Source: Rhizodiscina lignyota (Eukaryota). Taken from it: a stretch of DNA of 64,000 nt. Where the stretch lies: the NCBI GenBank assembly GCA_010015805.1, contig ML978135.1, positions 496,001 through 560,000 of the forward strand. The letters run 5' to 3'. Numbering within the stretch: position 1 is the first letter of the stretch; every line of letters starts with the position of its first letter. The position numbers were made by a program, and so were the translations under genes. Below, piece by piece: positions 3,577-64,000 of the stretch. The notes beneath the pieces were generated by a model. That model did no database searches, was not told the DNA's origin, and saw only the letters and a program-made list of their open reading frames with translations.

Positions 3577-5477
3577 ATGTTTCTAAAGCAACTTGATCTA
3601 ACAACTGCGCTCCGGCCAAGCTTGCTACCTGATGAGACGCTCCTCTTCGTTCAGGATGCTGTGGGGCTCTACGACGGGTATGCTATGCAATCCCAAGACG
3701 TTCCAATGCTTTAACCATAGCTCAGGAAGTTTAAGATCCCCGAGTATCAAAACGGCCATGCCTACCTGACGTCGCATCGAGCATGCTATGTGGACAACGA
3801 AGAGCCCAGGAAGTATGCAGTGGCAATAGACCTGAAGGATGTGGATAGGTCCGAATTCTATGTACGCGTTAGCAGACCTCAATTTATCGCTATTAAGCTC
3901 TTATAGTAACAGATACGTAGGCAGGTTTCCTGAAGTCTTCACCAAAAGTTACGCTGTATCCGAAGCCTTTGAAGCGCACATCGCTTTCAACTCGAGGCCC
4001 GCCATGGACGCCTTCACCAGCGCCAACAGGTGGAACTCAGAGTAGCCCACAGCGATCGCTTACTGCCTCTCCCGCGCCTCTCCCAGCCTCGGCGACCTGG
4101 GTTTGTCCGATATGCTCGTTCTCGAATCCAATTCCATCGAACTTCGATCCTGCCACGGCAAATAATAGAACTCCGATACCACCTTGTTTGGCATGTGGCA
4201 TCAAGCCTCCGCTTGTACATGTAGTCAAGGCGGCAATCAATGCTATGGGCAAGCGGCAAGCGGTGCAACAACCTATTACATCGCAACAAGCTACGACTCC
4301 CACAATCCCGAGTAACGATTACGGTACATTCCGTTGTCCTCGATGCACGTTTGAGAATCATCCATCCCTCATCAACTGTGAGATGTGTGGTGCTTCGCTT
4401 GTATCTGCCCCAGATCGCCGCCTTGATCTTGGCCCTAACCCCGTCGAAAGATCAGAATCTCCTGCACCGATGTTTACTGGCCTTGCAATTCAGGACGATG
4501 CAATTGAATCTGTAAAATTCTCATTTCGCAATGGTGGAGATAAGATATTCCATGAGCGCCTGAAGGGCGCTTTGGTACAGCGGAAATGGCTTCTCCAGAG
4601 TGCACCACCTGTGCCACAGCCGATGAGGACTGAGAACGGCAATAATCCTATCGAGCCTCCAAGCACGATCGGTGGGTCCATCTTGGATAGGAACAAGGTG
4701 GTTGGCATTGCTGGACTCGAGAGAAGAGGCCAGGAGCAGCGCAAGAACAATGAGCTCGTTCTCGGAAATGCCTTTGAGGATCTGGAGGCACTCATGACGT
4801 CGGCAAAAGAAGTCATTGCACTGGCGGAAAAATTCTCTTCCCAGGCAAACCCAAATGGAACTGGCTCAGAAGCCGATGCAGTCCTTTCACAGTCGGCTTC
4901 GGCCCTTGGGCTCGTCACGACCAAGGATATGCTGAGCAGCGGTTCAGACTCACTCTACATCTCAGAGCTGTCGCGCAACCTCGCAGAGTTTCTTACCGAC
5001 GATAGCAAAGGCGTACTGAAAAGAGAGGGCGGCATCATCAGTCTCGTCGATCTATGGGCCGTCTTCAATCGTTCTCGCGGAGGTGTCGAGTTGATTAGCC
5101 CTAACGACTTCGAGAAAGCTGCACAACTATGGGACAAGCTCAAACTGCCCGTCAGACTGCGCAGATTCAAAAGCGGGCTACTTGTGGTACAAGGATATGA
5201 TAGAACAGACGAGAAAACCATCGCGGGTTTATTATCATGGTTGGGTACCTTGCATTCTCTAAGCCCCGGCGAGGCATTAACATGGGACTCCCAAGCATAC
5301 GGGCGCGGTGTTACGGCTCAAGAGGTCGCTGAGCATTTCGGATGGAGTTTGGGCGTTGCTACTGAGGAACTCGATATGGCGGAGGAGCAGGGAGCGTTGT
5401 GTAGAGAACAGGGTCTGGATGGGATACGATTCTGGGAGAACTGGCTGATGAAACTGCCGCCGGTGCAGATGACTTGA
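3577..5477 (+). CDS. VPS36: ESCRT-II subunit Vps36 (split GLUE domain, two NZF zinc fingers, EAP30 winged-helix domain)
   Basis: Exon 1 from ATG 3577 reads MFLKQLDLTTALRPSLLPDETLLFVQDAVGLYDG. Later exons read 'HAYLTSHRACYVDNEEP', then the NZF fingers WVCPICSFSN and CPRCTFENHPSLINCEMC, then 'AFEDLEALM...GGIISLVDLWAVFNRSRGGVELISP'. Confidence 0.93.
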
Positions 5478-7103: not shown

Positions 7104-8817
7104 TCAAACTTTTTGCTCTCCCGTGACGGGTGTCTCCTCGAAGTGAGTGACGCCACTCTTATTGATCTCATTGGCATCAGTCGCCGCTGCCAGTCTCTTA
7201 TCGAGCTCGGCTCTGTCAGCCTCGCTCATGTCGTTAATGTCCAGCGCGACTTTGTCTCCGAACTTGCCAGCGATCTGGTCAACGTCAGTACTATTCTCCT
7301 TCAGCATACCATATCAGGACAACTTACCTCTTCAAGAGTTAGACCCTTCGTTTCCGGGAGATATCTAATTAGGATGAAAACGCAGGCCAGCGGGATGAAT
7401 ATGAACACCAAGTAGTACTTCCAACCAATATTGTTGAACGCAATCGGAGCCGACTGCGTGTACACCAGCGCCGTGAGGAAGAGACCGCTGATTGAGAAGC
7501 CGACGCCCTGTGCTCTTACCCTCGTGGGGAAGATCTCCGAACAGTATACATAGGTCGAGACGTCCATACAGCCGCCATAGAACGTGACGTACAGGTAGAT
7601 AAAGAACACGCCAAACCCGTTGCCGATTTTGTTGTTCGTACCTGCGTACTTTGCTACCATGGCCGCTTCTAACACGATTGATATAGCGCAACCAATGACG
7701 CCAATCGCGAGGATCCGAATACGGCCAAAGCGATCGAGAATGAGCGTGTTGACGTAGTTCATGACCGAAGCCCAGGTGTCGAAGCAAGCGTACAGGAGAA
7801 GCGGGAGAGCGCCGTAGAGTCCCAGACTGTTGTACAGCAAGACTTGGTAGTTGTTGACGACCAGTACGCCTGTGCTCTGGGCGATGAAGAGAACGAAGAA
7901 GCCAGAGAGGAGACGCTTGCGATAAGTCGGTTTGCGAAGGAGAGAGAAAATGTTGCCGAGGTTCTCGTGGCGCTCAAGTTCAATCTGTGCCTGGATTTGG
8001 ATAAACTCCTCACGAGCGGAGACGTGGCCTGGGTCATCTGGGTTGGCGTGGAGATCTTCAAGGATACGGAGACCTGTTCATGGTGGTCAGTATGCGGAGT
8101 GATCCTGCTTTCGGCGTAGTCGTACCTTCTGCATCGCGGCCACGCTCGATGAGCCAACGTGGAGATTCTGGCATCCAGAATGAGCCGACAAAGAGCAATA
8201 TCGGAGACACCATTTGCAAAGCCAAACACAGACGCCATTGAATAGCCGGATTGCTCTCGTAGAAGGTGCCGTATCCCGTCCACCCTGCTAGAGCCTGTGC
8301 ATAGCATCAGTTGTAATGATCAGTTGAGTTTCAGTGAACTCACATAGCCAATGCAGATGATGAATCCATGAGTTCCCACTAGAAGACCTCTCTGCGAGGC
8401 AGGACTGATTTCGGCCTGGTAAGTTGGAACGATGCAGTTGATCCAAGCTACGGAAATTCCATTGATGACGCGGCCAACCAAGAACATTGCAATATGCACC
8501 GCACCAGCTTGCAAAATCCCAGCAATGACGCATACTACGCAAATGATCTGGATTGACTTCTTTCTGCCAAGGTTGTCTGCCAGGTACGCGATGGTCCAGC
8601 ATCCGATGGCCCCTCCGCCTTGGAAGACTCCATTGGTAGCACCAGTTATACTCGCACCGCTTGAGCTGGATATGTCGATATTAAAGTACTGGAAGAATGA
8701 AGGAAGGCCGAGGACAGAGCCAATGAGAGCAGCATCGTAGCCATACGTGAATGAGCCCAATGTGACGAGATACGCAATCAGAAAATTGTAGCGGTTGGCC
8801 TTAGCTCCAATCGCCAT
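7104..8817 (-). CDS. MFS sugar porter family transporter; 4 exons
   Basis: Contains 'GSFTYGYD', 'ADNLGRK', 'PTYQAEISPASQRG', 'MPESPRWL', 'DRFGR', 'SEIFPTRVRAQG' and 'PETKGLTLEE'. Splicing gives a continuous frame. Confidence 0.92.
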
Positions 8818-9899
8818 TTTGAGACGGTTGAGGATCTAAGAGATGCTTGACCGAAGCTGGAACGCCTACGAGGACAGAAGGACATTAAAGAACGCCGTCG
8901 GCAGGATTGGATATGCGTCCATCCTTACCGTATTGCCCCGTGAATACTTCGAATCTGGACTGGACTTCCGAGTATCACTCAACCCAGGAAGATGGTTCCC
9001 CGCATCGATATCCTCTCGACATCCACTCCGCATTGCTTTCTGGCCCGGGGTTTTATTCGTGCTCTCCACTCTCCGTTCACATTGGCCAAGCACTGGGGTA
9101 TCACCCTTGCCTACGGTGATCATCGGGGACAATACCGAGGGCATATCGTTCGTTTCTCCCCTTCCAGCACGCTGTACCTGGCATGGCGGCTCACGTGGAG
9201 ATGTTTTCTCGTCAGATATTAAACAGAGCTCAATCCTATCGAGGAAATAATCGGGGAATAAACAGGTGGTGGTATCGGAAGATTGCTTCCTTTCGATGAG
9301 GTGCTACAAGGCTACTCGGCAATTGCAGCGTTTGGAATTGCCCTCAGGAGGTGGCATATGCCATGGAACCGCACGAGAAGAGACTTCAATGAAGGAAAAT
9401 GATTACGAAACATGGGAGAAAGGATGAACAGAGGTCCATTGAATTTCTTGTGGATGGACGGGAGCTTCCCGCTTGACGAGTCAGTCGGTCCGATTTTCTC
9501 ACCACCACCAACGTCCACTCTTGCGACTTGACTTTGGGGTTGTAGCAATGTAGCAGATAGTGGCTTGAATAAGAAATCGACTTCATCTTCTCATGTATCC
9601 GGAATCGCAGAATGGTTCTGGAAAAGCAATCGTAGTCAAATGCTTAAATAATGACACTGATTCAATCATCTGCACACATGTGGGCACAAAATGTTGATCG
9701 AAATGGGTTGAGTCACCCTTTTTATTCACTAGCTAAAGAGTACAAGACTTCTGGGACTTTATCAATTGCGACACCAGCGCCAGCGCCAATCAACCTGCTT
9801 GGTGTCGCACCACCATGTTCCAAAGGGTGACTCAAATCCTCCGCAGATACAACTTCCACACCCACGCGCACGTCTCCAGCGCCCAGATCGTCAAGTTCC

Positions 9900-11850
9900 T
9901 CCGCGACCCAGCCCACCCAAGTCCTCCCCGACCCAGCCCACCCTCTCATCCACAAACCGAAGAAGAAAGACGTCGAACCTCGCCCAGCGTCACCAAGCCC
10001 AAGTCGAGGGTGCATCCGCGCACGGAACGACAGGGCATGGAGACGGCTGTGTGCCAACAAACCACCAAGCGCCGACCAGTAAGCCGAAAACTTGACAGCT
10101 TGAAGGCGCAAAACTCCCAAGGCAAATGACCTCCATGTGAGTCGCATAGGTAACAAAGACCCTAACCCTTTAAGGTATAACGAAACCGACTTCGGTTAGA
10201 TGCCGTGGGAGCTTTGCGTTGTACGATCCACCAGAGGCTTCGGAATCAATCCTCACCAGCCAGAACAGCTTCAGCATCAAGCTTCATGAGCAAACAGGTT
10301 TCAACAGGCAGATTTTCCCACACCAAGCACGCAACCAACGGAGCGGCGGTTGCCAGTGACACTCGAACACCCATTGTGCTGTGGGCGTCCAAACTCCCGG
10401 CAAGGCCGTAGGAGTTTCCGCTGGGCTCCAGTCCAAAACCAACTTTTGTTGGTTGGCGATGATGGCTGGTGTCGACAAGCCCCTTCCGTGCCACTCTGTC
10501 GCCAGATAGCATGGAGCTATCTGCCTTTACGACAGCCAGTTGGAGCTGACATGCCGACAGCTAACCGTGACCACCCCTCCGCGCGGGTCCGTCCGGCGCC
10601 ATCGACATGCGCTTGTGTAGGTATGTGCCAGGCCGCTCACACGGCATACGAGAGACGAGGTTCGAACCACCGAACGAGGTGAGAAGCCCACGGAGTATAC
10701 CAGCCAGGGGGGAGCAGGGCGATGAAGTCGACGACAACGCAGCCGGAGCTGGCACTGACGAGGCACCCGGTGCCTGTCAGCCTCGTCGTTTCTATCGCCC
10801 GACCAAGGTGCTCGCGCAAAGACTCGTAGAGTTACTGTTGCGACGCTCACTAGACGCGCTTCGTCCAGGCAACGGGGGTCAACCGTAAGCCTAAGCGAAA
10901 AGAGCCGTCGAGCTGACTCTCCGGTGTGAAGTGTGTACCGACGCGCTGCGGGATGGGTGATGTCGTCCGCATATCCGAGTGAGTGTGGACCCCTGTTCAT
11001 GATGTGAGTGAGTGCTCGAAGCTCAAGTGACGTCACGCGTTGAAGGTAAACACCGTACCTGTACAGAAAACATGACTGCGCATGGGTTTCGGCAGGATCC
11101 ATTGATCCATACCCCCACAAGTCAAGTTTCCGGAAGGCAATTGACGACCTTCTCTTGGCTGGCTGCTCTCGAACGATGGTGGTCGATCAATCCGCTTGTA
11201 GTGGTGTGTGGTGAGTCCGCCATCCAACCTTCCATCTCGAGAGAAAAGGAAAAAAAAAGCAGAGATCACTGATTAAACCAGGGCTCCAAGCCCAGTCCCA
11301 GACAAAATCCTCCACGTGGCTTGAAGCTAGTCTTCAGCCTGCTCCCCACCGGCCTCGTTAAAACCTCAGCCTTTTTTGGTGCTTGAGGGGAAAGAGTACC
11401 CTTCGCTGCCAAAGCAGCAGGAGCCTATAAATCAGTGATCAAAACAAGTACGAAATGACTGAAGAAAAAGGCACTATCGTCCTCAGCGCAAGGAGAAAAG
11501 AAAAGAGAGAGAGAACGTTTGGAGAGAGAAGTATTTATCACCTCGCGGCTCCTGCCGCCGGGCTGCGGCCCGTGGGTTCGTGGGAGCTATGGCCTCCTCA
11601 TTTCCAGCTGCCTTGAAGCTTGAGCTAGCTCTCAAGCTGTTGTTTGATTGGTCGAGAGGTGAAGTGTCTGGGGAGCAACACCGGCGCCCGAACTTTCTGA
11701 TTGATTAAACTTTTGCAAAGTGTACTCCATGGGTAGCCGCTTGCTTCACTTGAGTCTGCTCTTGTAGCAATGCTTCGCAAGCCCACGTCTTTGTAGAAAT
11801 ATGAGAGGCTAGGACAAGGGGGAGCAAATACATTTGTTCATGGGCTGAGA
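9900..11850 (+). ncRNA. TER: Candidate telomerase RNA (TER/TR), ~2 kb; exact ends uncertain
   Basis: Template-like ACCCTAACCCT at 10159-10169 (complement of TTAGGG repeats) with a hairpin at 10129-10151 just 5' of it. H-type pseudoknot at 11364-11400. At least 8 nested long-range helices pair 9909-10129 with 11598-11847. Branched arm at 11711-11798. No recognisable protein-coding gene in the interval. Confidence 0.72.
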
Positions 11851-11945
11851 AGAATATAATTGAAAGGAGCAGACGCAAAGCTTCGGTGATTCACTCTGAG
11901 CTTCACTTCATACCAAGTGTTTGTCCATACTCATACCCATCACAT

Positions 11946-12839
11946 TCACTTGAATGCTCTCATGCCCCAATCAAAGCCATATCGATCCCATTCAGCTGGA
12001 ATACATCCACCTTCCTGGTGTACCACCTCCCACTCTTTCACAGTCTCTTCCTCGCTGGAGAGCTGAAATCTATCTACGTTGCCGAATACGATTCCGGCAC
12101 CCACAATCATCGTAATCAGACTACGAAGCTCCGCAAATGGGTTACGGAGCCACCTTATAGGTGCTCCGGGGTTCCGTCGAGGGAACCTCTTGGGTCGACG
12201 CCTGCGAGACTGCTCGGCCTTTTCTGGATTGTTCGCATCAATGTCATCGTTCTCGTTGGCATCTTCTCGGATGAGATGGACATTCACATGGATTTCTCGC
12301 AGATGCATCTTCTGCGGGAGTGGCCTCTGTGCGTCGAAGCGTGGGCCGCAATGGATGAAATGGTTCAAAGTCTGGTACAGCTTTCGAACGACTGGCATCG
12401 GACCGCCGTCTCCCCAGAATTGTCCATCTCTCATGTCATCGAAGACGACATTTGCCACCAGATACCGAGCGTCACTTGGAGGACATGGGATCCTTTCCCA
12501 CGTTGCCCTTAGTCCGAGAGACGGGTCGAGTTCCAGAACGTATGTTGCATTTTCTTCACTCTGGAGAAATGACGCTTCACTCGTCAGAGCTTTCATTTCA
12601 GCCGCTATTTCCTTGCAGGTGAAAAGGAGATTCAACCAGGGAAGTTGGAGAGGTCCCTTGAGCTGTGGGGTGCATCGAAAACCAGTTTGTGAGAAATGGC
12701 CGTCTTTCCAGTACTCTACAGTCGTACAGTTGATCTCAGTTCCGATGACCTCACGGTAAATCTGGCGTCGAAGTTCTCGCGGTAGGCCAAGAAGGCTGGC
12801 TCGATTGTCGGACGACATTCTCTTCGTGAACGACGCCAT
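11946..12839 (-). CDS. Hypothetical protein with N-terminal F-box-like motif
   Basis: 297-aa intronless ORF with 'SLLGLPRELRRQIYREVI' at the N-terminus and 'LLFTCKEIAAEM', a common fungal F-box-like pattern. Confidence 0.75.
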   Translation of the reverse strand: MASFTKRMSSDNRASLLGLPRELRRQIYREVIGTEINCTTVEYWKDGHFSQTGFRCTPQLKGPLQLPWLNLLFTCKEIAAEMKALTSEASFLQSEENATYVLELDPSLGLRATWERIPCPPSDARYLVANVVFDDMRDGQFWGDGGPMPVVRKLYQTLNHFIHCGPRFDAQRPLPQKMHLREIHVNVHLIREDANENDDIDANNPEKAEQSRRRRPKRFPRRNPGAPIRWLRNPFAELRSLITMIVGAGIVFGNVDRFQLSSEEETVKEWEVVHQEGGCIPAEWDRYGFDWGMRAFK

Positions 12840-13835
12840 CCCTGAAGAAGAAAAGCACTGCTCGGGTGAAATGGAATAGCTGCTTGCTAAGCGCTATTGG
12901 AGAGTGAAACTGATTGAAACTGAGACTGGACGCTGAAAAAGAAACAGACAGGTGAAGTGGCAGCCTGCCATGCTCTGAGGCTCCCGTCCCTGGCCCGGTT
13001 GTCGAGCTAACGTGCCTTCCCGACTCATTTGCAGGAGGAGCCAATGAGATCCAACTTGATGAAATACAAAGGTACTGTGACCGAGAGTCGCGTTGAACTC
13101 TCACCGTCTTACATCCGAACAAAGACACCGCTCTATAGGTGTATAAAAACGTCTTTGACTCTCTGTTCACCCTTCGAACATCATTGCCCGTCGTCTCAGG
13201 GGTTTGAATGTCCGAGATCGTAACGCGCCGTCGCGCCCAAATGGCCACGGTGGCACGCACCTCTCGGCCTTCGAAAGACCGTGCCGCACGCGACGCATCA
13301 CTCATCGCCATCGAGCAATCGCATCGTATTCAGTATTGTCCATGTCATCGCAGGGCATCGTTCATGCCACTGTTTTAAAAGAAGGAAGCATGGCGTTGGG
13401 TCGTCATTCTACATACATCAGAAGCCGAAAGTCCTCCGGCTCATTTCCGGTCGCGCATGTCATCGTGCGCAGATCTAAGCGTTTCTTTACAGTCCTTGTC
13501 TTGCGCCAACGCCCTTTTTGGAGCATCGGTTAGTATGTGTAATCCTGTCGTATTGGCCTCTGCTCCTCCATTCCGGGATCTCGGATGCCGCATGCCGCAG
13601 TAGTTTGTCTCCCGTTGCTTCAAGCCGCAGAATTGGTAACCCAGCACTTTGCTTTAGAAATCTTCACGGGAACTTCGCCGGGGAAGAGATGGCAACGTCA
13701 CTTGCTCAATTTATTCAAGTGGCATGAATATTTTTACAGCAGAGAAACAGCATTAATTCGAATCGCCATCGACACAGCAGCACTCCCCCACGGCGACTCA
13801 TTCTCCGCGACCCCCGCCCCATTTGGACGACGCTG

Positions 13836-15186
13836 ATGACAGAGATGGTAAACAACGAAAACGGAGATTTATCCAACGTGACATTGGGCGAGTCTGGAGA
13901 TTTTGAGAAATTCGAGAAAGGAAAAGACGATGTCATAGCCAACAATGATTCCGACGTCGAGAGCGGCACACCTCCTCAGAGAAGTCGATGGTCATCCGCC
14001 ATTGAAACATTCTCCCCCAACTGGTGAGAAGAATCGTGCGACATCTCCAATAAATGGCAGCGATACTAATATCCTATCTAGGTTCGCATTATGCATGAAC
14101 ACAGGTCTCTTGGGAATACAACTCCACCAGTTCCCGTACAAATTCCGTGGATCAAATGTGATAGCAACATGTTTCTTCATCAGCGAGGTCGTCCTCTTCT
14201 TCCTCTTCATTATCATCCAGATCATCCGTTTCTGTCTTTTCCCCCGCGCCGCCTGGAAACAGACTATTGCCACTATGGACGAGCTGTGTTTCTGGGGCTG
14301 CGTACCAATCGCGCTAGTCACCATTGTCGCGCAAATTGGAATCATTGGTTCCACGGCGAATTCATGGAGCGATTCAGCGCAGCATGGTATCACAGTGTTT
14401 GCCGTCGTGCTGTGGTGGATTGATACCGCCTTGATGCTTGTGACGGCCTACGTCGTGTACTACCTCATCGCGAGGTGGCGAATGGCCGAGAAGGCGCCCA
14501 TTCCATCAGGCATCTTCCTCCCTGCTGTTGGAACGACGACCGTTGGACTAGTCGGCGGCATTATGGTGAACGGCTCTTTCGGTCTATCGGCACGCCTTGC
14601 AGTACCTATAATTTTCGTGAGCTTTCTCCTTGAGGGCTTCGGCTGGTGGATCGCCATGCTCGTGTATCCGGTGTTCCTCGCCGAAATTTGGACCAAAGGA
14701 CTACCACCACCGTTCAAGCTCCCAACGATGATGATGCTTGTCGGTCCCGCAGGGCAAGTGGGAGCCGCACTTCACTCGCTCGGCACATCTGCAGCGACCT
14801 ATTTCGGGCCGTACAACAGAGGCACCTTTTTCACGGCAGAATTCGGCTTTGCCTTCGGCGCCGCGAGCAAAATGCTAGCTGTTATGTTCCTCGGTTTCGA
14901 CGTTTTTTGGGGCATTTTTGTCATTTACACTCTCGCCCATCACCTCATCTCAGGGAAGGCAAAGCCCGGCATGCCATGGTGGAGCACTATTTTCCCGCTC
15001 GGCACAATGAACTCCACGTTCCTCCTCCTCAGCCAAGAACTCGATAGCCCGACCTTCCGCGTGCTCGCAGCAGGCTTGTATCTTCTATTACTGATCGATT
15101 ATATTTGTTGCTGGATCATGACGATCTATCTTGTTTGGCGTGGCGACCTCTTGGACGGGCGGCCAAAGACTGAGAAGATTGCCTGA
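13836..15186 (+). CDS. SLAC1/TDT family anion efflux channel (Ssu1 sulfite pump / Mae1 malate transporter-like)
   Basis: 'FSPNW|FALCMNTG' is joined across intron 14024-14081. About 10 hydrophobic segments; contains 'MLVGPAGQ' and 'WWSTIFPLG'. Confidence 0.88.
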
Positions 15187-15484
15187 CGTTGGCTTTGGCA
15201 TCTCATAGACGAGAAGAATGAGAAACATGCATGGCGATTTGTCTTTGGTCTTCATAGAAAGCGTTAAAGCGATTAACGGATTTACATACATCTGATTGAA
15301 GAGATTGCAAATATCTCCTTGCCGCCTCTACTCATCTAATCAGTAAAGAAGATTCGTCCTCATCGTAAAACGCTGGACTCGGATCCCAACTTTCAACCTT
15401 CAAGCTGACTGCAAGCCGAAGCAGGTTGAACCATTAAAATCAGAGCACTTCATTATCCAGCATCAACATATCCGACTCGAGCTA

Positions 15485-16366
15485 CTACGAAAAGAATTTC
15501 GTGAACCATGAAATAGCCTGATCTTCTGCCTCAATGCCTTGCTCGTTCTCCTTGGGAACTTTGGGATTCGCCCGCACAGCGAAACCTGAGAAGGTCAGTA
15601 CATTCTGCATTCAGAGTGGCGATGACTGCGTACCATGTGTTGCCCCTTCGTACGTTTTGACTTCACACTCTGCTGGGCATTGCTTCAACCCGGCCTCAAC
15701 CTCCAGAATCTTGTCCCCGCGTATGTGATGGTCTTCCGACGGACATGCTACGCTCACTGGGAGTTTGACCGCATCAATATCGGCCGGGAGTTTGAGGGAG
15801 CTCGGATGCGCCGTAAAGCCCGCATTGATTAGGCTCTTTCCGCTAGCAGACTTTTCGGTGTCGCGAGCCAGCAAAAAGACGTGCTTGCCACCCCAGCAGA
15901 AGCCTGCGGCGCCGATGGGCTGGCTCTCGTCCTCGCTGCGCAGCTTCTTGAAGTACCCCAAGACGCCGGGCCAGGTCGCGCTGTGGCGGGCGCCGTACAG
16001 CCAGGACACGAACATGGGGATTCCTCGCACAACGTAGACAGCTTTCCAGAATGTGTGCACCCCCAAACTCTCATGCTTCTCCGTGACGTAGTCCATGATG
16101 TTCAGGAGCTCGGGATTCAGATCCCAGCCGCCCATGAAGTCGGGGAGCAGAACTCTGAAGCTGCCCTTCTTTGCATAGTTGTCTGCAAGAATGCGATTGT
16201 TGTTGAATTTCCAGCCAAAGGCGTCCGGTATAATCACTACTGTTCCCTTTGGAGCAGTACCGGATGGAGGTGATGCAACATAAGTCGCGAGGCCATAGAG
16301 CGTCTCAACGGTACCAGTGGGAGTACCTTCATGCAGTGTGCCGCTAACACAACCAGAGCAGGCCAT
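15485..16366 (-). CDS. Dienelactone hydrolase family alpha/beta hydrolase (Aim2-like)
   Basis: 'MACSGCVSGTLHEGTPTG', 'IIPDAFG', nucleophile motif GFCWGG and 'AHPS'. 'YEGATH|GFAVR' spans the last intron. Confidence 0.9.
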
Positions 16367-16986: not shown

Positions 16987-19029
<2,043 letters not shown>

Positions 19030-20013: not shown

Positions 20014-22083
20014 TCATTCCATTTCTACAGGTTGGCTACTGGGCCTCAAATAAGGGAATCCATCTAAAACTGTTCCACCACTACTATACTCAGGCTGATA
20101 CATATCGATTCCATCCGGCTGGGCTGTCAACGCTGACGGTGCACTTCTTTCCGATTCCCAGGCCTTGGCCGAATCTCTGGAATTTCGAGAGCGCCGGTGG
20201 CGGAGACAGAATAATGTGATGCAGGCACCGCTAATGGCAATACCGGCGACTGCTCCAATCACAATTCCTGCAATTTCTCCGCCGGAGAGAGTCTTAGCCC
20301 TACTGGAGCTACTCTCACCAGAACTGGAAGAATTGGCCGATCCGAACAACGACGAGAGCCCAGCTTCCGTCCAGCCGTTTGAAGGCTCGGTCATGGTAGC
20401 ATTCCCGGATGGCCTGCAAAGAGTACATCAGCGAACTAGTATTGTCAATTGGTCTCTCGTGCGGCAATCCGAGTTCAGATCCCGTCACATGTCGAGAGAC
20501 ATGACGTTCTGTCTGGAATGATTGGATATGAAGAGACCAAGGCACCCAGATAGATAGCTGACTGGATAACGCCCGTTTATCTTTCGACCTGGTTGAAGGG
20601 AAAAATGACTCACCCTCCTCCAATCACGGACACTAATGCATCTGGTACTTGGTAAGGTGGCGCTTCTGCGTCATATACAGAGCCCCAGCTCAGGGCGCTG
20701 AGGTCGAAGACGGACAGGCCGTTTGGGTCCGGGTCACAGTCTGTAGTGATATTTGTTGAATTTCCGCCACCTCCAATAGTGACCATCTGTCTGGACCCAG
20801 CTTGATGGCAAGTGGCTCCCCACCTTGTAGTGGCTCCATTGTACGCGGCGGTCCAGGTGAAGGACGGTAGGCTCAGAATCGCCACATCGTCAAAGCTTTC
20901 TGCATGGTTCGTCCCACCATGCATATATATGTTTATGCTGCTATTGTCTGGTGCATATGCCACAACCAGGCAGAAGTCGGTGCGAGGATCCGGAATCTGT
21001 CCTGTGGCAGTCTGCTGGTACCATACATTGTTATCGGCCAGGGATGAATTGGATGTGTAGTCCAGCGTATTCAGGTCGAAGACTGCAATGTCAGTCATGG
21101 GAAGACAGCCATCTTCTTCGGTCCGACCCCCTAGCAGCACAAGTATTCCAGCCTCGCCCACGCCTTCCACATACACCATACCTCCCCCTTGGCGGTTGCT
21201 TTTGATTGAATCTTTCACAGTGACGTTATACATCCCGTGCGCACGGAGGGTTAGGACGATCAATCCGCCCGTGCCAACGGTGCTGTCGTTTAGAGATTGT
21301 GTGCTCTTCGCAGTCCCGTTGTCCAGTTGGCCGCCTACCCAGAAACCGAGACTCTTGTGGTCTTCCGCAAAGGCACCCCACGAGGGCGTGGTAGAGACCC
21401 AGAATGAAGTATCCACTCCAATCCATAGCTTCGAGACCCCATCCAAGTACCATAGCCCATTTCTGGTTGTGGGTGCTATTTCATAGCCGGGGAAGGATTC
21501 GTTGAAGCCGGATGTGGTCCCACCATACATGTACAAATCGCTACTGCCAGGCCATCCACTGAAGAGGGCCCCCTTTTGCACGTTCAGAGGAAATGACAGG
21601 CCGGAGACACTGCCTCCCATAGTGTGGTTCTGTTGAGTGATCGAAACGTTTGTCTTCGAGTCCCAAGAGCTGTTCATGTCAACAAGAATAAGAAACTCAT
21701 CTTCCGAGGGCACATGGGGATTAGCTTTGAAGACATCAAAAGCAAGAGGCGTTAGAGAGGGGTCTTACTTATTCCTGAAGTGATTGTGTCCAATTCTTGG
21801 TGCCCGCCCTCGTTGACACCCACAAACGTTTCTATCCCTCCATTTATGTAAAGCGTGCCATCTCTGAGAGTTGCTGGGTAGGGTGCTGTGAGCTTACGGC
21901 CAAATCTAACAGTTGATTATCGGGAAAACTTACAGCCATGGCCAACTCTTCTGCAAAAGCTCGTCACCGGGTTAAGGGAATTCCCAGCTCGAACGACCGT
22001 GACTTGAGCCAGAGCAAAGAAGAGGGAAAGTAAGCGTTTGCTCTGACCTGAGGCTTCGACGGCCAGCCTATTCGATGCCACAT
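20014..22083 (-). CDS. Kelch/galactose-oxidase-like beta-propeller single-pass membrane protein; 4 exons; start codon appears out of frame
   Basis: Signal-like 'LLSLFFALAQVTVVRA', 'FCRRVGHG', Kelch repeats (LYMYGG, FWVGG, LVLLGG, IYMHGG, MVTIGG), a Ser-rich linker and TM 'IAGIVIGAVAGIAISGACITLFCL' followed by a basic stop-transfer segment. Confidence 0.8.
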
Positions 22084-31190: not shown

Positions 31191-34100
31191 ATGGCATATC
31201 TGGCTGCTTGTTACTGCAGGGAGGCCTCCGTAACATTCCAGCCTCGTTGCCTTTCAGCTCCGCTGTCACTTCTTAACGCGTGGCTGGTAATGGAACACAT
31301 ATCTCTGTCCAATCGAGACGCTGTGGCGACTTGAATTCGCCTACGGCCTGCAGAGTTACCCCCCAGAACTCAAGGGAATCTGAGCTATTGAAGGCGTGGG
31401 CTGTGCATATCGTTCGCGACCTGCCGCCCAGCATCAGGAGAATTGCCTTGAACTCATGTGGGGAAGCTTTCGATGATGAAGCTCTCTGTATGACCGCTAC
31501 TACCATGCGGCCGTCTTCGTCACCGATGTGGAAAGCCTTGCTACGAATACAGTTTACTTCATTCCTTCCACGCGGACTGATTCTCACTCAAGAATTCGTA
31601 GCTCCATACATTCGGCGACCTTGCGCGTGACATCACTGGGACAGACAAATCTGTTTCGACCATGTCCATGCAGAAGCTCGCCGACGTGTGGGGCGAGCTT
31701 CTTGAAAGGCGGGACAGTGACAACCTCGTTCGAGAAATATTCGGTCACTTCGACATCTACTCCAGACATGCTCAACATGACTCTCAAACGTTCTGCCGCT
31801 GGCCGAGGCTCCTTCTGGTGCGACTACGAATATTCTTTGACATCCAACGTACCTATTCACAATGTCGCCCAAGCCAGCCTCCGGACGCAAGAATTCCATC
31901 CCCCTTGATTTCCTCAAGGTTGCACTATATTCTCGTCTTTCGACTTATGCAGTTTGGAACGGATATTTCCAAGGAACCGAACTTCTCTGGACCGGAGTAT
32001 AGCCTCCAGCGTCTACTCATAATCCAGACATTGCTGTCCAGCATCCGCGCTCTCATCCTGCGGCAAGACTTCCGTGATACCAAAGACCTTTTGCAGCAAC
32101 TAAGAAGTCTTGTCAATGCATGGTCTGGCAATACCGGTCGACGCCTTTCTGATGTGGAAAGCTTTGTGCTGGAATGGTTGCTCCCAGATACACTGTCAAC
32201 TGTTCAGGACCAGGCAAAGAGTAGGACTATCAGATCTCTAGCATGTGGAAGATTCGACTTGCCGGACTACGCTTCTGGCCTCTATCCGATCGAAATTCAT
32301 TCTTCAGTGGACCGCGGGCAATCGTATCAGTCTGCTTTGAGGGATACCATTCGACAGTTGGATTCAACCGAGTGGCTCGAGGCGTATTGGTCGCTGAGTG
32401 ATGTAGTATGGGCTGTTAAGGCTGCTAAGATGAAGTGTTACGCCCCCAGGAGCACGGCCGACGAAAATGATAAGGTCCATACCCACGACGTTATGGATGA
32501 AGTTCTATCTGTCGTATTTGCAAAAGATAATCCGCCAACGCATGCCAATCCTAACCCGCCAGTCAGGTCTCTGTCTGATGCGCTTCTGGATTGCTATTGC
32601 ACGACTGCCAGACCCGCCCTGGAGGCGCACTATGCGGATTTCAAACAAATCAATTCCGGTTCCCATTGGCTAAAGAGCACCATAGACAGGGAGCTGGATG
32701 AGTTCTTGGATTTTCTCACTCGGCGAAAGCTGCACCTTCGCGACTCTAATGGGGATTTTGAGACTGTTTTCGACAATATGGGAATGTATACAAGAGACTG
32801 GTACCGCACAGCAACAGGTGATGCAGCCGCCATGAGCCTTGAAGAGGAAAGCCGTCCTGGCACAAGCGAAGAATGTACGCGAATATACTTTGTCAATTGT
32901 AGAAGGACACATCCAGTCACGAGTGTCTGCCTACAAGAATTACTGAAAGGCAACGATAAATTACGGTTTCAGGCGTATTCTCTCTCTATTCCGGGATTGA
33001 TAATGGAAAAGAAACACTCCGACCCTGCCGAACAATTCGAGATCAATGGGGATGTCGAAGATGTTCTATGTCCCTACTGCCCTGAAGGGGTTCGAATCAC
33101 CAGCGCCAGATTAGCATCACCGCTTTCTTTCGTCAGCACTACCCTTCAGTCGTTAGTGTCACAAGCTGCTATAGACTCCGAGACACTAAGGCCGCACTAC
33201 GCAGAAGACGTCCACTCCGCTCCAGAAATCCTACCGTCGCGAGCATCCTCGGTAATAACGCGATAAAGCCAGGATCCATCTCGCTCTGGGAGTAATACAT
33301 CCAGTTCTTCTTCAGGGCCGCGACTGAACGGTCGGGGCGGTAAACCATATCAAGTTCCGCAAAGTCCGACAAGTCCAATCAGGAATGGCAGAGGCAGAGG
33401 CCTGGACGATAGCATCTCTTCGTCCAGCAAGGGCGGAAACTTCTTCCACAGAATCACAAAACGACCCAGCGCATCTTCCTCGCAGTCCATCTCACCACTC
33501 CCGAACACCCTTGCGTATTGTTTCTCCAGTTCCGCCGACAGAATCTTCCTGTGGCACACAAAGGACAGCGTTGACCTCGTCAGAATCGATGCGCCTTTCC
33601 AAAGTGCAAAGAGCTTCTCGCTTTTGAGAGGCGACGGCTCCCGAGACGCTGGAGCAGATGTTTTGGATGTTGCAGCAGGAGATCGAAACGTTGCCGTACT
33701 ATCGCGGTATTCCGGAAAGGTACAAACTAAAGTTTGCCACTGCAATTTAACGACGCATCTGCTGACATGACATAGAGTGAGATCCTATTCCTTTTCGACG
33801 AGCATGGAGGCCGTCACGAAGCTCAGCCCAATGCCATTCTTGGGACCGGTGAATCTAAATGCTACTCGATGTCCATGTCACCTAAATCAACCCTGATTGC
33901 CATCGGTTGGGGCTCTGTGGTACAGGTATACAAGTTCAGCGCCGGCGCTCTTGTACTTCAAGACGTAGTAAGGATCCATGAAAGTTACTCAGGAGGCAGT
34001 TTGAAATACCAGACCTTGAACTTCTCACTTGACTCAAGAAAGCTTATCGTCGCAACTCAAGAAGACGTCGGAAACCCGGAATTGAAGGACAATTGCCACG

Positions 34101-61038: not shown

Positions 61039-62723
61039 ATGACCTCTTGGATGAGCCGCGCGCGCGGCACGGGACGGGATGCAGGCCAGGGTCAGAGCTT
61101 AATGGACAGTCAGACGCTGCCAACTCCGGCATCATCGAATTACTATCCGTACTATCCACCGCGACCTCGGGACCCAAACGCGCCGGACCATCGCCTGCAG
61201 CTAAACAGCAAATGCATCTATGAGAGGAGCTTGCCGGGAGGGGCATACATCACCTGTCACATTGATCGACTCCAATGCGGATACTACGACTCTCCGAGTA
61301 TCCATGAAGACTTGATTGACCATGTCCGATTTCTCACGCTACACTTTGTTTTCCATCCGGCTTCGACAATCCATCGCTTTGTGAGTGCAACAATCCGGGC
61401 GTCAGTCCACAACAGCGAGGATTCAATTTCAAATGGCAGTCATGCAGGGGATGGGAGCCAGCACAACCGGCCTGAGTCTGCTCAAAAGAAGAAGCACAGT
61501 GGCCAGAATCCTTCTATCCTTCGCCATGCGCCACATCTGCTTTACGGGTCCATATCCCCGGAAACGCTTCAGTGGAATTTTAACCTTGCCGGGTCTCTGG
61601 GTGTGTCAGAAGGACCAGCAAATGCAAGTTTTAACCCCTCTGGAGGCTACAAAGGCAGCTATAAACTATACGAGATGATGCGCATCCAAGGCTCCTCACG
61701 CACTTGGACGGGTCGGGCCGGCCCGGAGGACGACGTGGAGGATGGAGAGGTTGTCTGGACTCTTGAGGAGAATAGACTTCAAAAGTCGGGGCTACCGCGA
61801 GAGTTCACATTTATCATACTCCTGAAGAAAGGCGAACCGGAGACAGACACGGTCTTCGACATACAGGTTGACCCAGTTATAAGTAACTGGGTTGGCAACT
61901 ATCCGATGTGGTATGTGAATTTGCTGCCTTATCAGCCATTGAGGAAGCCTCCTATAGACCTGGAGACTGAAATTGGACAAACATTCCAACCATGCCTTCC
62001 CGGAAGAGGATATAATTTTGCGAACCTCGCATCTTCGTTTGAAGATTTTGTTGCGCTCCCCGGCACAACGTACTCTTCGAGTGTGAGTGGGACTTTTGAT
62101 TAGACTCGGGCAGATCTAACAAGGAATAGGATAATCCCTCTGCGCTGCCTCAGAATGATAGTACCAAAACGCCGACAGCTGGTTCCTTGCAAAACAGCTT
62201 GGTCTTGGGACAAGCAACGAAGCAGCCCGGTCCGCAAGGCCAACAGCAAGGTCAAAGTAAGCCACAGGCTCAAGCGCAACAAGGCCAGTCTCAAGGACAG
62301 CAACCTCCAGCTCAGACACATACTCCAGAACAGCATCCACAAACAGCGCCTCCTCTATTTCCAAACAACACGCTCAACGTTCGGGTGACCATTGAGAAAC
62401 CAAGCTCGCCTCTCTACTCTCCAATCGAAGGCCTCCGCAGCCTTTCCGGTCGTAGTCCGGGAAGGACACATTCTCTTCGTCGCTCGAGGTCTCGAAATGG
62501 ATTGATGAAAGAATACGGCGCTGCCCAAGATGACGCGCTGTCGCATATTGCCCAAACAAACGCCACTGTCGGCGCCCGCGGCCCATTGCGAAGATCGTAC
62601 GCTGAGAAAATGAAAGACATGGAAATCTCGACGAAGGACGGGTATCGCGAGAAATACGGGCGACGAGCGACGCCGGAAAATCGCAAGTCGTATCCTTCAG
62701 GAAGGCCATTTAGCTCCGTGTGA
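61039..62723 (+). CDS. Conserved fungal hypothetical protein with Gln/Pro-rich C-terminal exon
   Basis: A 354-aa ORF ends at a GTGAGT donor near 62084, followed by a 178-aa low-complexity exon. Confidence 0.7.
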
Positions 62724-63384: not shown

Positions 63385-64000
63385 TCAAAGGGCGCTGAGC
63401 ACCCTTGGGTCGCGGGGCTTGGTGGCAATACCAGCCCAGATACCGCCATCCATGATCTGGGTCGTACCATTTGTGTACGCCGACTCGTGGGAAATCAGGA
63501 ACAGTGCCGTGTATCCCGTTTCCCAGCTGGCAGACGTTAGCATATGTGACACATCTAAATGGGTTCACGAAGCAACTTACCCGGTCGCTTGCCTTCCGAA
63601 TGCTACTGTGGCAGCTCGGTTCTTTACCTTCCTGCCTGATGAACGACCCATGGGAGTCTCGACGTAGCCCTGGTTTGATGTTAGCATATTTGTTCTTCTA
63701 AAGCAGGATTTCTAACTTACCATGCAAATAGCATTGCACCTGATTGCTTTGTCCTCGCCGGCTCTCGCGGTCGCCCTGCTAAGGGCCAACAGTGCGGCCT
63801 TGCTGGCCTCGTAGACCGGGTTGTTGTCGAGGGCTCTGATTGCGCTGGCGGAGCTGATGAGGACGATGCTGGCACCTGGGTCCATGACCTCAATTCCATG
63901 CTTGCAGAACATGAAGTGGCTTCTCGTGTTGATGGCAAAGTCCTCATCCCACGCTTCCATCGACGTCTCGGCCATCGGGATACGTCTTGACGTGCCAACA
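63385..64000 (-). CDS. Short-chain dehydrogenase/reductase, 5'-truncated by the window end
   Basis: 'SIVLISSAS', catalytic YEASK, 'IRCNAICM|GYVETPMG' and 'G|WETGYTALFLISHESAYTNG..QIMDGG'. Confidence 0.88.

Follow-up and report, generated by a model that had tools for sequence, protein, structure and literature searches.

Does the long gap between two minus-strand genes in this 64-kb window (by which we mean the whole stretch of DNA analyzed) encode a telomerase RNA, as an earlier note proposed from an 11-nt complement of the TTAGGG repeat lying behind a hairpin and within a ladder of long-range pairings? Most likely it does not, and a chance motif has fallen in an unusual spacer, a reading to which we give a probability of about 0.45. 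In that case the locus would be a long spacer, in a Dothideomycete-like ascomycete, with a sugar-transporter gene on one side and an F-box-like gene on the other. The 11-mer ACCCTAACCCT would match by chance, and its CUAACC core would pair with GGUUAG as an arm of a small local fold; we infer that the 11-mer does not serve as a template. This reading is given less than half of the probability because the composition and foldability of the spacer stay unexplained. The features concerned are collected in Table 1.

Table 1. Positions of the features discussed, numbered from the first letter of the window
Feature	Positions	Strand	Details
Left neighbor, N terminus of an MFS sugar transporter	ORF 8320-8817	-	Sugar_tr, E 1.3e-29, profile positions 2-152
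Gap without recognizable coding sequence	8818-11945	.	flanked by two minus-strand genes
Right neighbor, 297-aa gene	11946-12839	-	relatives, from Mycosphaerellaceae, are named as hypothetical or F-box-domain proteins
GC-richest part of the 64-kb window	10001-11200	.	800-nt windows
Long hairpin	9708-9835	+	14-bp perfect inverted repeat 9708-9721/9822-9835; nested 10-bp perfect repeat 9767-9776/9800-9809
5' strands of the favored long-range helices	9909-9949	+	CAGCCCA 9909-15 and CCUCUCAU 9942-49; ensemble and minimum-energy fold
Local three-way junction	10114-10211	+	closing helix CUCCCA.GGCA (10114-10124) with UGCC.UGGGAG (10201-10211)
Branches of the three-way junction		+	branch 1, hairpin 10129-10151; branch 2, CUAACC 10162-10167 with GGUUAG 10194-10199
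Hairpin, boundary-element candidate	10129-10151	+	ACCU-CC-AUGUG-AGU-CGCAU-AGGU; pair probabilities 0.59-0.82
Candidate template, 11-nt complement of the TTAGGG repeat	10159-10169	+	ACCCTAACCCT
Branched domain	11264-11440	+	11-bp perfect closing helix GAUCACUGAUU / AAUCAGUGAUC
Hairpin with 4-bp stem and 5-nt loop fitting NUNGN	11757-11769	+	UGCU-CUUGU-AGCA; pair probability 0.07-0.08
3' strands of the favored long-range helices	11801-11847	+	AUGAGAGG 11801-08 and UGGGCUG 11841-47; ensemble and minimum-energy fold

The identity of the right-hand neighbor comes from a protein homology search that gave 15 proteins with E ≤ 0.001, the named matches (33-41% identity) belonging to Zasmidium, Dothistroma, Fulvia, Pseudocercospora, Lecanosticta, and Meristemomyces. 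Within the gap itself, no Pfam family reached its cut-off in any of the 35 stop-to-stop ORFs, and no homologues were found for the ORFs of 157 and 104 aa or, against 1.84 billion representatives, for that of 219 aa. Codon log-odds were about 0 or negative in all frames, compared with 0.06-0.25 for real genes, and the best-frame sliding codon score from 8800 to 11800 always lay between -0.12 and +0.05. Although the gap contains ORFs of 104-219 aa, three of them with weakly positive codon log-odds (0.064-0.086), these searches and scores argue against an unrecognized protein-coding gene or pseudogene, which we hold to be extremely improbable. A repeat or transposon relic was also considered and rejected, as 8800-12000 shows no similarity to the remainder of the 64-kb window, and the chain test of end-to-end stems (below) argues against diverged terminal inverted repeats. 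A genomic sequencing contig spans 4000-18000 with 0 differences and is possibly the source of the same DNA.

Non-coding and rich in GC, the spacer is also self-complementary to an exceptional degree. Its GC content is 0.591 in 10201-11000 and 10301-11100, set against a window mean of 0.505 (S.D. 0.028); all four 800-nt windows with a GC content of at least 0.575 lie in 10001-11200, and four other non-coding gaps have values of 0.52 or less. Ten perfect inverted repeats of at least 10 nt occur in 9500-12000, the most of any 2.5-kb stretch, compared with 3.49 ± 1.65 in natural 2.5-kb stretches (0 of 115 reach 10) and 2.66 in shuffles (0 of 300), whereas direct repeats are not enriched there (4 versus a mean of 4.12). 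The plus strand of 9577-11882 has a folding energy of -795.6 kcal/mol, which improves on 44 of 44 shuffles by about 30-40 kcal/mol; energies as low were found in 0 of 8, 0 of 16, and 0 of 20 (block-wise) shuffles, with z-scores of -3.3, -2.6, and -2.85. The minus strand of the locus gave a z-score of -1.2, and two control gaps gave +0.38 and +0.31. Local folding z-scores over 160-nt windows fail to separate the locus from two other gaps, values below -2.5 being found on the plus/minus strands in 3/2 of 45 windows here and 3/3 of 61 there. A plain spacer does not predict the outlying GC content, inverted repeats, and plus-strand folding, which therefore count against a chance origin of the motif, as does the coincidence of the only non-coding telomere-like run in the window with a structurally outlying locus.

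The same outliers favor a different explanation, in which the plus strand encodes another long structured RNA, non-coding and of an undescribed kind, and the 11-mer is a segment of a three-way junction and not a template. Three domains are separately stable, each more so than any of 200 shuffles: 9700-9845 (z-score of -4.48, with pair probabilities up to 0.99), 10060-10215 (-44.0 kcal/mol, z-score of -3.09), and 11255-11450 (z-score of -3.32). The last has a closing helix with a probability of 0.53-0.64, a hairpin at 11323-11335 with the loop CUAGU (0.86-0.88), and the only U6 tract of the locus, at 11372-11377 (CU6GG). In the arms of the long hairpin at 9708-9835 we also observed the sequences TGAGTCA/TGACTCA. 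The pairing of CUAACC with GGUUAG in the ensemble agrees with such an RNA, but no Rfam family was matched, a metagenome scan found no homologous DNA, and two other gaps are equally frequent in locally stable 160-nt windows. We know of no class of ~2-kb structured RNA described in filamentous fungi besides telomerase RNA, and another long folded RNA here would be a new class; we consider it decidedly unlikely.

The 11-nt perfect telomeric complement that prompted the telomerase proposal lies exactly where it was reported and is unique in the window: CCCTAACCCT occurs once against 0.02 expected, with matches in 2 of 100 shuffles. Four telomere-like runs of at least 8 nt are present in the 64-kb window, and as the other three all fall within long ORFs, ACCCTAACCCT is the only one outside a long ORF. 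It covers about 1.8 repeats, where a template would need at least ~1.5 repeats complementary to TTAGGG, and it sits in the 5' quarter of the locus, on the better-folding strand and just 3' of a hairpin. By our own arithmetic (six phases, two strands), a genome of ~34 Mb should hold about 100 11-mers of this kind by chance, a caution that applies to this one if it is indeed a chance match. Scanning metagenomes with the pattern GACCCTAACCCTTTAAGG gave seven loci, all of which we judged to be chance matches because none is similar beyond the 18-22 nt around the pattern.

We examined the predicted structure around the 11-mer in the ensemble of a 2201-nt RNA. From 5' to 3', the unpaired probabilities of its nucleotides are 0.76, 0.76, 0.69, 0.25, 0.12, 0.15, 0.13, 0.19, 0.17, 0.96, and 0.96, so that in this thermodynamic prediction 6 of 11 nt are unpaired at only 0.12-0.25, unlike a single-stranded template. 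The pairing of CUAACC with GGUUAG has a probability of 0.67 and recurs in the local fold. The 23-nt hairpin reported alongside the 11-mer stands at its given place and does form in the ensemble; its 3' end is 7 nt upstream of the 11-mer. The closing helix of the junction (10114-10124/10201-10211) reaches 0.85-1.0; it is the helix closest to the candidate template, and the 98-nt domain within it holds no pseudoknot. Core-enclosing helices of telomerase RNA bring its template and pseudoknot together. According to PMC3603654, the template boundary helix of Aspergilli is separated from the template by "mostly two nucleotides," and 15 of 17 template nucleotides of Aspergillus oryzae, all but 2, are single-stranded in the predicted fold.

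The hairpin contains the sequence GUGAGU at 10137-10142, and on another reading the 11-mer would supply the branch site for a spliceosomal intron of a UTR or a non-coding transcript, with a 5' splice site at 10137, a branch site CUAAC at 10162-10166, and a 3' splice site UAG at 10197-10199. The resulting 63-nt unit, GUGAGU...CUAAC...UAG, resembles an ordinary filamentous-fungal intron in having three canonical signals, of which just 10 such strict triples exist in the whole window on both strands, and GTGAGT occurs four times on the plus strand and never on the minus strand of 9000-12600. It differs from an ordinary intron in its distance from branch to 3' splice site, 34 nt versus 10-11 nt in the five short (47-57 nt) canonical triples of the window, which we take as real introns from their position only, and in having coding exons on neither side: each of the three forward frames closes before 10137, and no coding signal is seen in the flanks. 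The three signals are moreover buried in the predicted local fold, and we regard this explanation as very improbable.

The ends of the locus were said to be joined by a strictly nested ladder of eight helices. All 18 strings quoted in its support (16 ladder strings, the 23-nt hairpin, and the 11-mer) are found at their places, but the ladder itself did not survive comparison with natural controls. The best nested chain of stems of at least 5 bp between 9900-10130 and 11595-11850 has 102 bp, above 300 of 300 shuffles (mean of 83), whereas natural controls of the same geometry have a mean of 92.4 bp, and 45 of 230 reach 102 bp. With minimum stems of 6, 7, and 8 bp, the observed value was reached by 184, 64, and 116 of 458 controls. 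Of the 8 helices, the ensemble favors just 2, 9942-49/11801-08 at 0.48-0.88 and 9909-15/11841-47 at 0.70-0.92; of the remaining six, three lie at 0.06-0.10 and three at 0.00 in the 2201-nt ensemble. A weaker version of the claim stands: cofolding the two end segments gained -28.6 kcal/mol, compared with -11.1 ± 4.8 for 116 controls (none as low, the best being -28.4), a gain that is biased because the segments were picked after their pairings had been seen. Any two 250-nt stretches of natural DNA will show long nested ladders of short pairings.

We also searched the locus for the hallmarks of telomerase RNA. Rfam probably includes an ascomycete telomerase family, RF02462. A search with the Rfam covariance models on 3601, 801, and 701 bases returned no telomerase family at the gathering score or at E ≤ 10. 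The terminal half-intron of these RNAs combines an Sm-like site, the 5' splice site AUA(A/C)GU, and a branch site, and Qi et al. are said to have found in 2015 that it is conserved across all Pezizomycotina. ATAAGT is absent from the plus strand of 7922-16280 and ATACGT from that of 9000-12600, and one-mismatch variants of AUA(A/C)GU lack a CTRAY branch site in the 160 nt downstream of them; in PMC3603654, the non-canonical AUAAGU/AUACGU terminal 5' splice site with its branch site is reported for 13 of 13 Aspergilli. The published form of P6/P6.1 is a short P6 hairpin, a junction A, and then an adjoining stem of 4 bp whose 5-nt loop fits NUNGN, and the pseudoknot of these RNAs is vertebrate-like, with 4-5 loop uridines and U-A pairs that form U-A.U triples (PMC3592445). 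With descriptors of our own, uncalibrated on real fungal telomerase RNA, we found no tandem P6 plus P6.1 arrangement on either strand of 9700-12100 (0.30 expected), no strict match to a U-tract triple-helix pseudoknot, and six start sites for a relaxed pseudoknot, against 4.7 expected per 2.25-kb strand. Just one run of at least five T, at 11372-11377, lies on the plus strand 3' of the 11-mer. Isolated NUNGN hairpins on the plus strand number five against about two expected at the window's own rate. Just one P6.1-like hairpin, that at 11757-11769, is spaced from the 11-mer much as in Neurospora, but it has no adjoining P6, and the fold of 11695-11800 has a z-score of only -1.34. The motif GAGNUNGNCUC, inferred from vertebrate P6.1, was not found with up to one mismatch on the plus strand of 9000-12000.

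That the plus strand encodes a divergent telomerase RNA is, in our judgment, unlikely but still to be taken seriously. It would be a Pol II RNA of about 2.1-2.3 kb running from about 9700 to 11850-11950, in which ACCCUAACCCU templates TTAGGG, the hairpin at 10129-10151 sets the boundary, the helices 9909-15/11841-47 and 9942-49/11801-08 join the 5' and 3' regions, and the pseudoknot and CR4/5 elements have diverged beyond the descriptors used. The unique non-coding 11-mer on a strand that folds better than chance, the hairpin just 5' of it, the end-joining helices, the exceptional inverted-repeat and GC content, and an Sm-like CU6GG at 11371-11379 all speak for it. The ORF-free locus is also similar in size to known filamentous-fungal telomerase RNAs, namely those of Neurospora crassa (2049 nt), M. 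graminicola (2425 nt), and A. nidulans (1584 nt), all from PMC3592445, and that of A. oryzae (2035 nt), from PMC3603654. With an RNA start near 9700, the 11-mer would lie about 460 nt in, and the minimal core of the N. crassa RNA retains nucleotides 434-462, according to PMC3592445. Against it stand the missing half-intron, Rfam match, P6/P6.1, and triple-helix pseudoknot, the predicted pairing of the template core, and the 7-nt hairpin-template distance, together with the statement in PMC3592445 and PMC6115765 that the cores of telomerase RNAs are well enough conserved to be found by BLAST throughout Pezizomycotina.

Of the earlier telomerase proposal, what stands is a GC-rich, ORF-free locus whose plus strand folds beyond chance and carries the 11-mer behind a hairpin in its 5' quarter; its more specific identification as the gene is not supported by the family-specific tests run here, on Rfam, AUA(A/C)GU, P6/P6.1, the pseudoknot, and template pairing. 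Because hallmarks common to related fungal telomerase RNAs are lacking, we treat the locus as a candidate and not as an identified gene. It is improbable, in our view, that an isolated Dothideomycete lineage has a strongly divergent telomerase RNA here, one that has lost both the AUAAGU half-intron and the recognizable P6/P6.1 of its relatives and whose template is masked by GGUUAG in a closed three-way junction. If the locus were the telomerase RNA, it would supply the telomerase template of this lineage and show that two elements regarded as universal among filamentous ascomycetes, P6/P6.1 and the AUAAGU half-intron, can be lost or remodeled. A chance motif in an unusual spacer, our preferred reading, fits the absence of all these hallmarks (splice site, P6/P6.1, pseudoknot, Rfam), the predicted pairing of the template core, a ladder at chance level, and 160-nt folding z-scores like those of two other gaps.

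Comparison with known systems places the locus as follows. The telomerase RNA of Ustilago maydis is processed from the 3' UTR of the Emi1 mRNA (PMC9564094), and here too an ORF that begins with ATG (9815-10129) stops 30 nt short of the 11-mer, with an intron-like unit after it. We rejected an Emi1-like origin, since that ORF has no homologue, no Pfam family, and a non-coding codon usage (-0.023), and its single cysteine means that it cannot hold the twin Cx9C motif of Emi1. In Schizosaccharomyces pombe, the 3' end of TER1 is formed at an Sm site that overlaps with a canonical 5' splice site (PMC4299874). The locus has the Sm-like CU6GG at 11371-11379 and plus-strand GUGAGU at 10979, 11004, 11008, and 11211, but its U tract is followed by GUGCUU and not by a 5' splice site, and the GUGAGU sites have no U-rich site upstream. 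From the telomerase RNAs of N. crassa and Aspergillus, as described in PMC3592445 and PMC3603654, the locus differs in lacking the AUAAGU/AUACGU half-intron, P6/P6.1, the U-tract pseudoknot, and an Rfam match, in its predicted paired template core, and in a helix 7 nt rather than ~2 nt from the template. It resembles them in being an ORF-free intergenic locus of ~2 kb with a perfect candidate template for TTAGGG in its 5' quarter, a predicted helix a short way 5' of it, and predicted long-range helices that may join its 5' and 3' parts.

All 18 sequence strings quoted in the earlier note, which had proposed a plus-strand telomerase RNA gene at 9900–11850, were recovered at their positions in the sequence. 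The candidate template for the TTAGGG repeat is the 11-mer ACCCTAACCCT, and the CCCTAACCCT within it is unique in the window, with an expected count of 0.02 and an occurrence in 2 of 100 shuffles. Four telomere-like runs of at least 8 nt, this one included, occur in the 64 kb. By simple arithmetic over six phases and two strands, ~100 chance 11-mers of this kind are expected in a genome of ~34 Mb, a size taken from the contigs of one sequencing run (34.2 million letters in total), so the motif by itself carries little weight as evidence.

The 11-mer of this ascomycete lies in a 3.1-kb spacer (8818–11945) between a sugar transporter gene and an ORF whose named relatives belong to the Mycosphaerellaceae and allied Dothideomycetes (33–41% identity). 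The size of the spacer is not rare here, as the same window holds two more gaps of at least 2.3 kb. Its composition and self-complementarity mark it as a structural outlier in GC, inverted repeats, and plus-strand folding. GC reaches 0.591 in the 800-nt windows 10201–11000 and 10301–11100, against an overall mean of 0.505 (s.d. 0.028) and a maximum of 0.52 in four other gaps, and all four 800-nt windows with a GC of at least 0.575 fall within 10001–11200. Ten perfect inverted repeats of at least 10 nt were counted in 9500–12000, a number reached by none of 115 natural 2.5-kb stretches (3.49 ± 1.65) and none of 300 shuffles (2.66 ± 1.61); of the 615 overlapping stretches, a count of at least 9 is confined to those that begin at 8301 and at 9201–9701. 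Direct repeats showed no enrichment at 9500–12000. The plus strand of 9577–11882 folds at −795.6 kcal/mol, lower than every dinucleotide shuffle in sets of 8, 16, and 20, the last of them block-wise (z of −3.3, −2.6, and −2.85); z was −1.2 for the minus strand and +0.38 and +0.31 for two control gaps. This folding excess is long-range, and 160-nt window z-scores at the locus are no better than in control gaps. For each of three chosen domains, none of 200 shuffles was as stable.

The hairpin at 10129–10151, put forward as a template boundary element, gained support from ensemble pair probabilities of 0.59–0.82. The proposed ladder of eight nested helices joining 9909–10129 to 11598–11847 is not supported: 45 of 230 natural controls of the same geometry reach the observed 102 bp, so that chains of this size are ordinary, longer minimum stems gave the same outcome, and the folding ensemble favors two of the helices but not the other six. 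Thermodynamic prediction instead closes a 98-nt three-way junction by pairing 10114–10124 with 10201–10211 (probability 0.85–1.0), inside which the template core CUAACC would pair with GGUUAG at 10194–10199 (0.67), leaving 6 of the 11 template positions mostly paired. CGTGGGAGCTTTG (10204–10216) and CGTGGGAGCTATG (11579–11591) are identical at 12 of 13 positions, which we estimate to be at chance level; CUCCCA (10114–10119) could therefore pair locally or 1.4 kb downstream.

Other repeats were seen at the locus. Two perfect 14-nt copies of GACCCAGCCCACCC, 25 nt apart (9905–9918 and 9930–9943), lie in a stretch very rich in C and A (over 9600–10200, GC skew is about −0.25 and AT skew up to +0.33). 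With them, the ladder strand TGGGCTG has a choice of two pairing partners, and the repeat may act as a promoter element for the divergent sugar transporter gene. The arms of a 14-bp perfect inverted repeat (9708–9721 and 9822–9835) contain TGAGTCA/TGACTCA, the AP-1/Gcn4-type site, and the 9708–9835 hairpin may therefore be a DNA-level binding-site pair rather than an RNA stem. The self-complementary locus lies roughly between the two copies of a 25-nt direct repeat of 80% identity (9526–9550 and 11748–11772, spaced by 2222 nt), which is borderline against chance by rough estimate.

Features in the window
Feature	Coordinates	Strand	Remark
Candidate template 11-mer	10159–10169	+	
Telomere-like run, ≥8 nt	4433–4441		inside long ORF
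Telomere-like run, ≥8 nt	21247–21255		inside long ORF
Telomere-like run, ≥8 nt	32550–32557		inside long ORF
Left-hand neighbor	8320–8817	-	MFS sugar transporter, N-terminal exon
Right-hand neighbor	11946–12839	-	ORF, 297 aa
Short canonical unit	7275–7327	-	GTRAGT...CTRAC...YAG
Short canonical unit	18467–18523	-	same
Short canonical unit	62083–62129	+	same
Short canonical unit	63527–63580	-	same
Short canonical unit	63670–63720	-	same

A hidden coding gene filling the spacer is scarcely plausible, as no coding signal was seen in 8818–11945 by Pfam, codon log-odds, or homologue searches: none of its 35 stop-to-stop ORFs reached the Pfam cut-off, codon log-odds were ~0 or negative in all frames (0.06–0.25 in real genes), and searches with three spacer ORFs found no homologues. 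It is very unlikely that the 11-mer is the branch site of a 63-nt intron (GUGAGU at 10137, CUAAC at 10162, and UAG at 10197–10199); all three signals are canonical, and the whole window has just 10 strict triples, this one included, but the branch-to-acceptor distance is 34 nt and neither flank carries coding exons. The five short units (47–57 nt) are probably real introns of neighboring genes that set the local intron geometry, and in each the distance is 10–11 nt. Clusters of GTGAGT/GTGTGT occur on the plus strand only (10975–11015 and 11204–11216), partly within a (GAGT)n-like low-complexity run; GTGAGT is found at 10979, 11004, 11008, and 11211 and nowhere on the minus strand in 9000–12600, and 11211–11282 resembles an intron of 72 nt whose branch site, CACTGAT, is weak.

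The odds of all these readings are a judgement rather than a computation, with a prior that sets one true gene against a few 11-mers occurring by chance in large gaps. The telomerase reading rose to about even odds through the structural outliers, the strand, and the position, and was lowered about tenfold because the half-intron, P6/P6.1, the pseudoknot, and a model match are jointly absent and the template is predicted to be paired. We thus consider a telomerase RNA gene doubtful and another structured RNA at the locus unlikely, and tentatively favor a chance motif in an unusual spacer, with a probability of about 0.45.

Rfam should hold an ascomycete telomerase model, and a search of Rfam returned no telomerase family at E ≤ 10. 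Published descriptions (PMC3592445, PMC3603654, PMC4299874, PMC4993307, and PMC9564094) ascribe to filamentous-ascomycete telomerase RNAs a template that has a helix beside it, core-enclosing helices, a pseudoknot of vertebrate type whose loop contains uridines, a P6/P6.1 element with a 4-bp stem and the loop NUNGN, and a terminal half-intron bearing either AUAAGU or AUACGU. On the plus strand, ATAAGT is absent from 7922–16280 and ATACGT from 9000–12600. Our own uncalibrated descriptors found no P6 plus P6.1 tandem arrangement (0.30 expected) and no strict triple-helix pseudoknot, with relaxed matches at the background rate. According to PMC3592445 and PMC6115765, conservation of the cores of filamentous-ascomycete telomerase RNAs is sufficient for BLAST to work throughout the subphylum.
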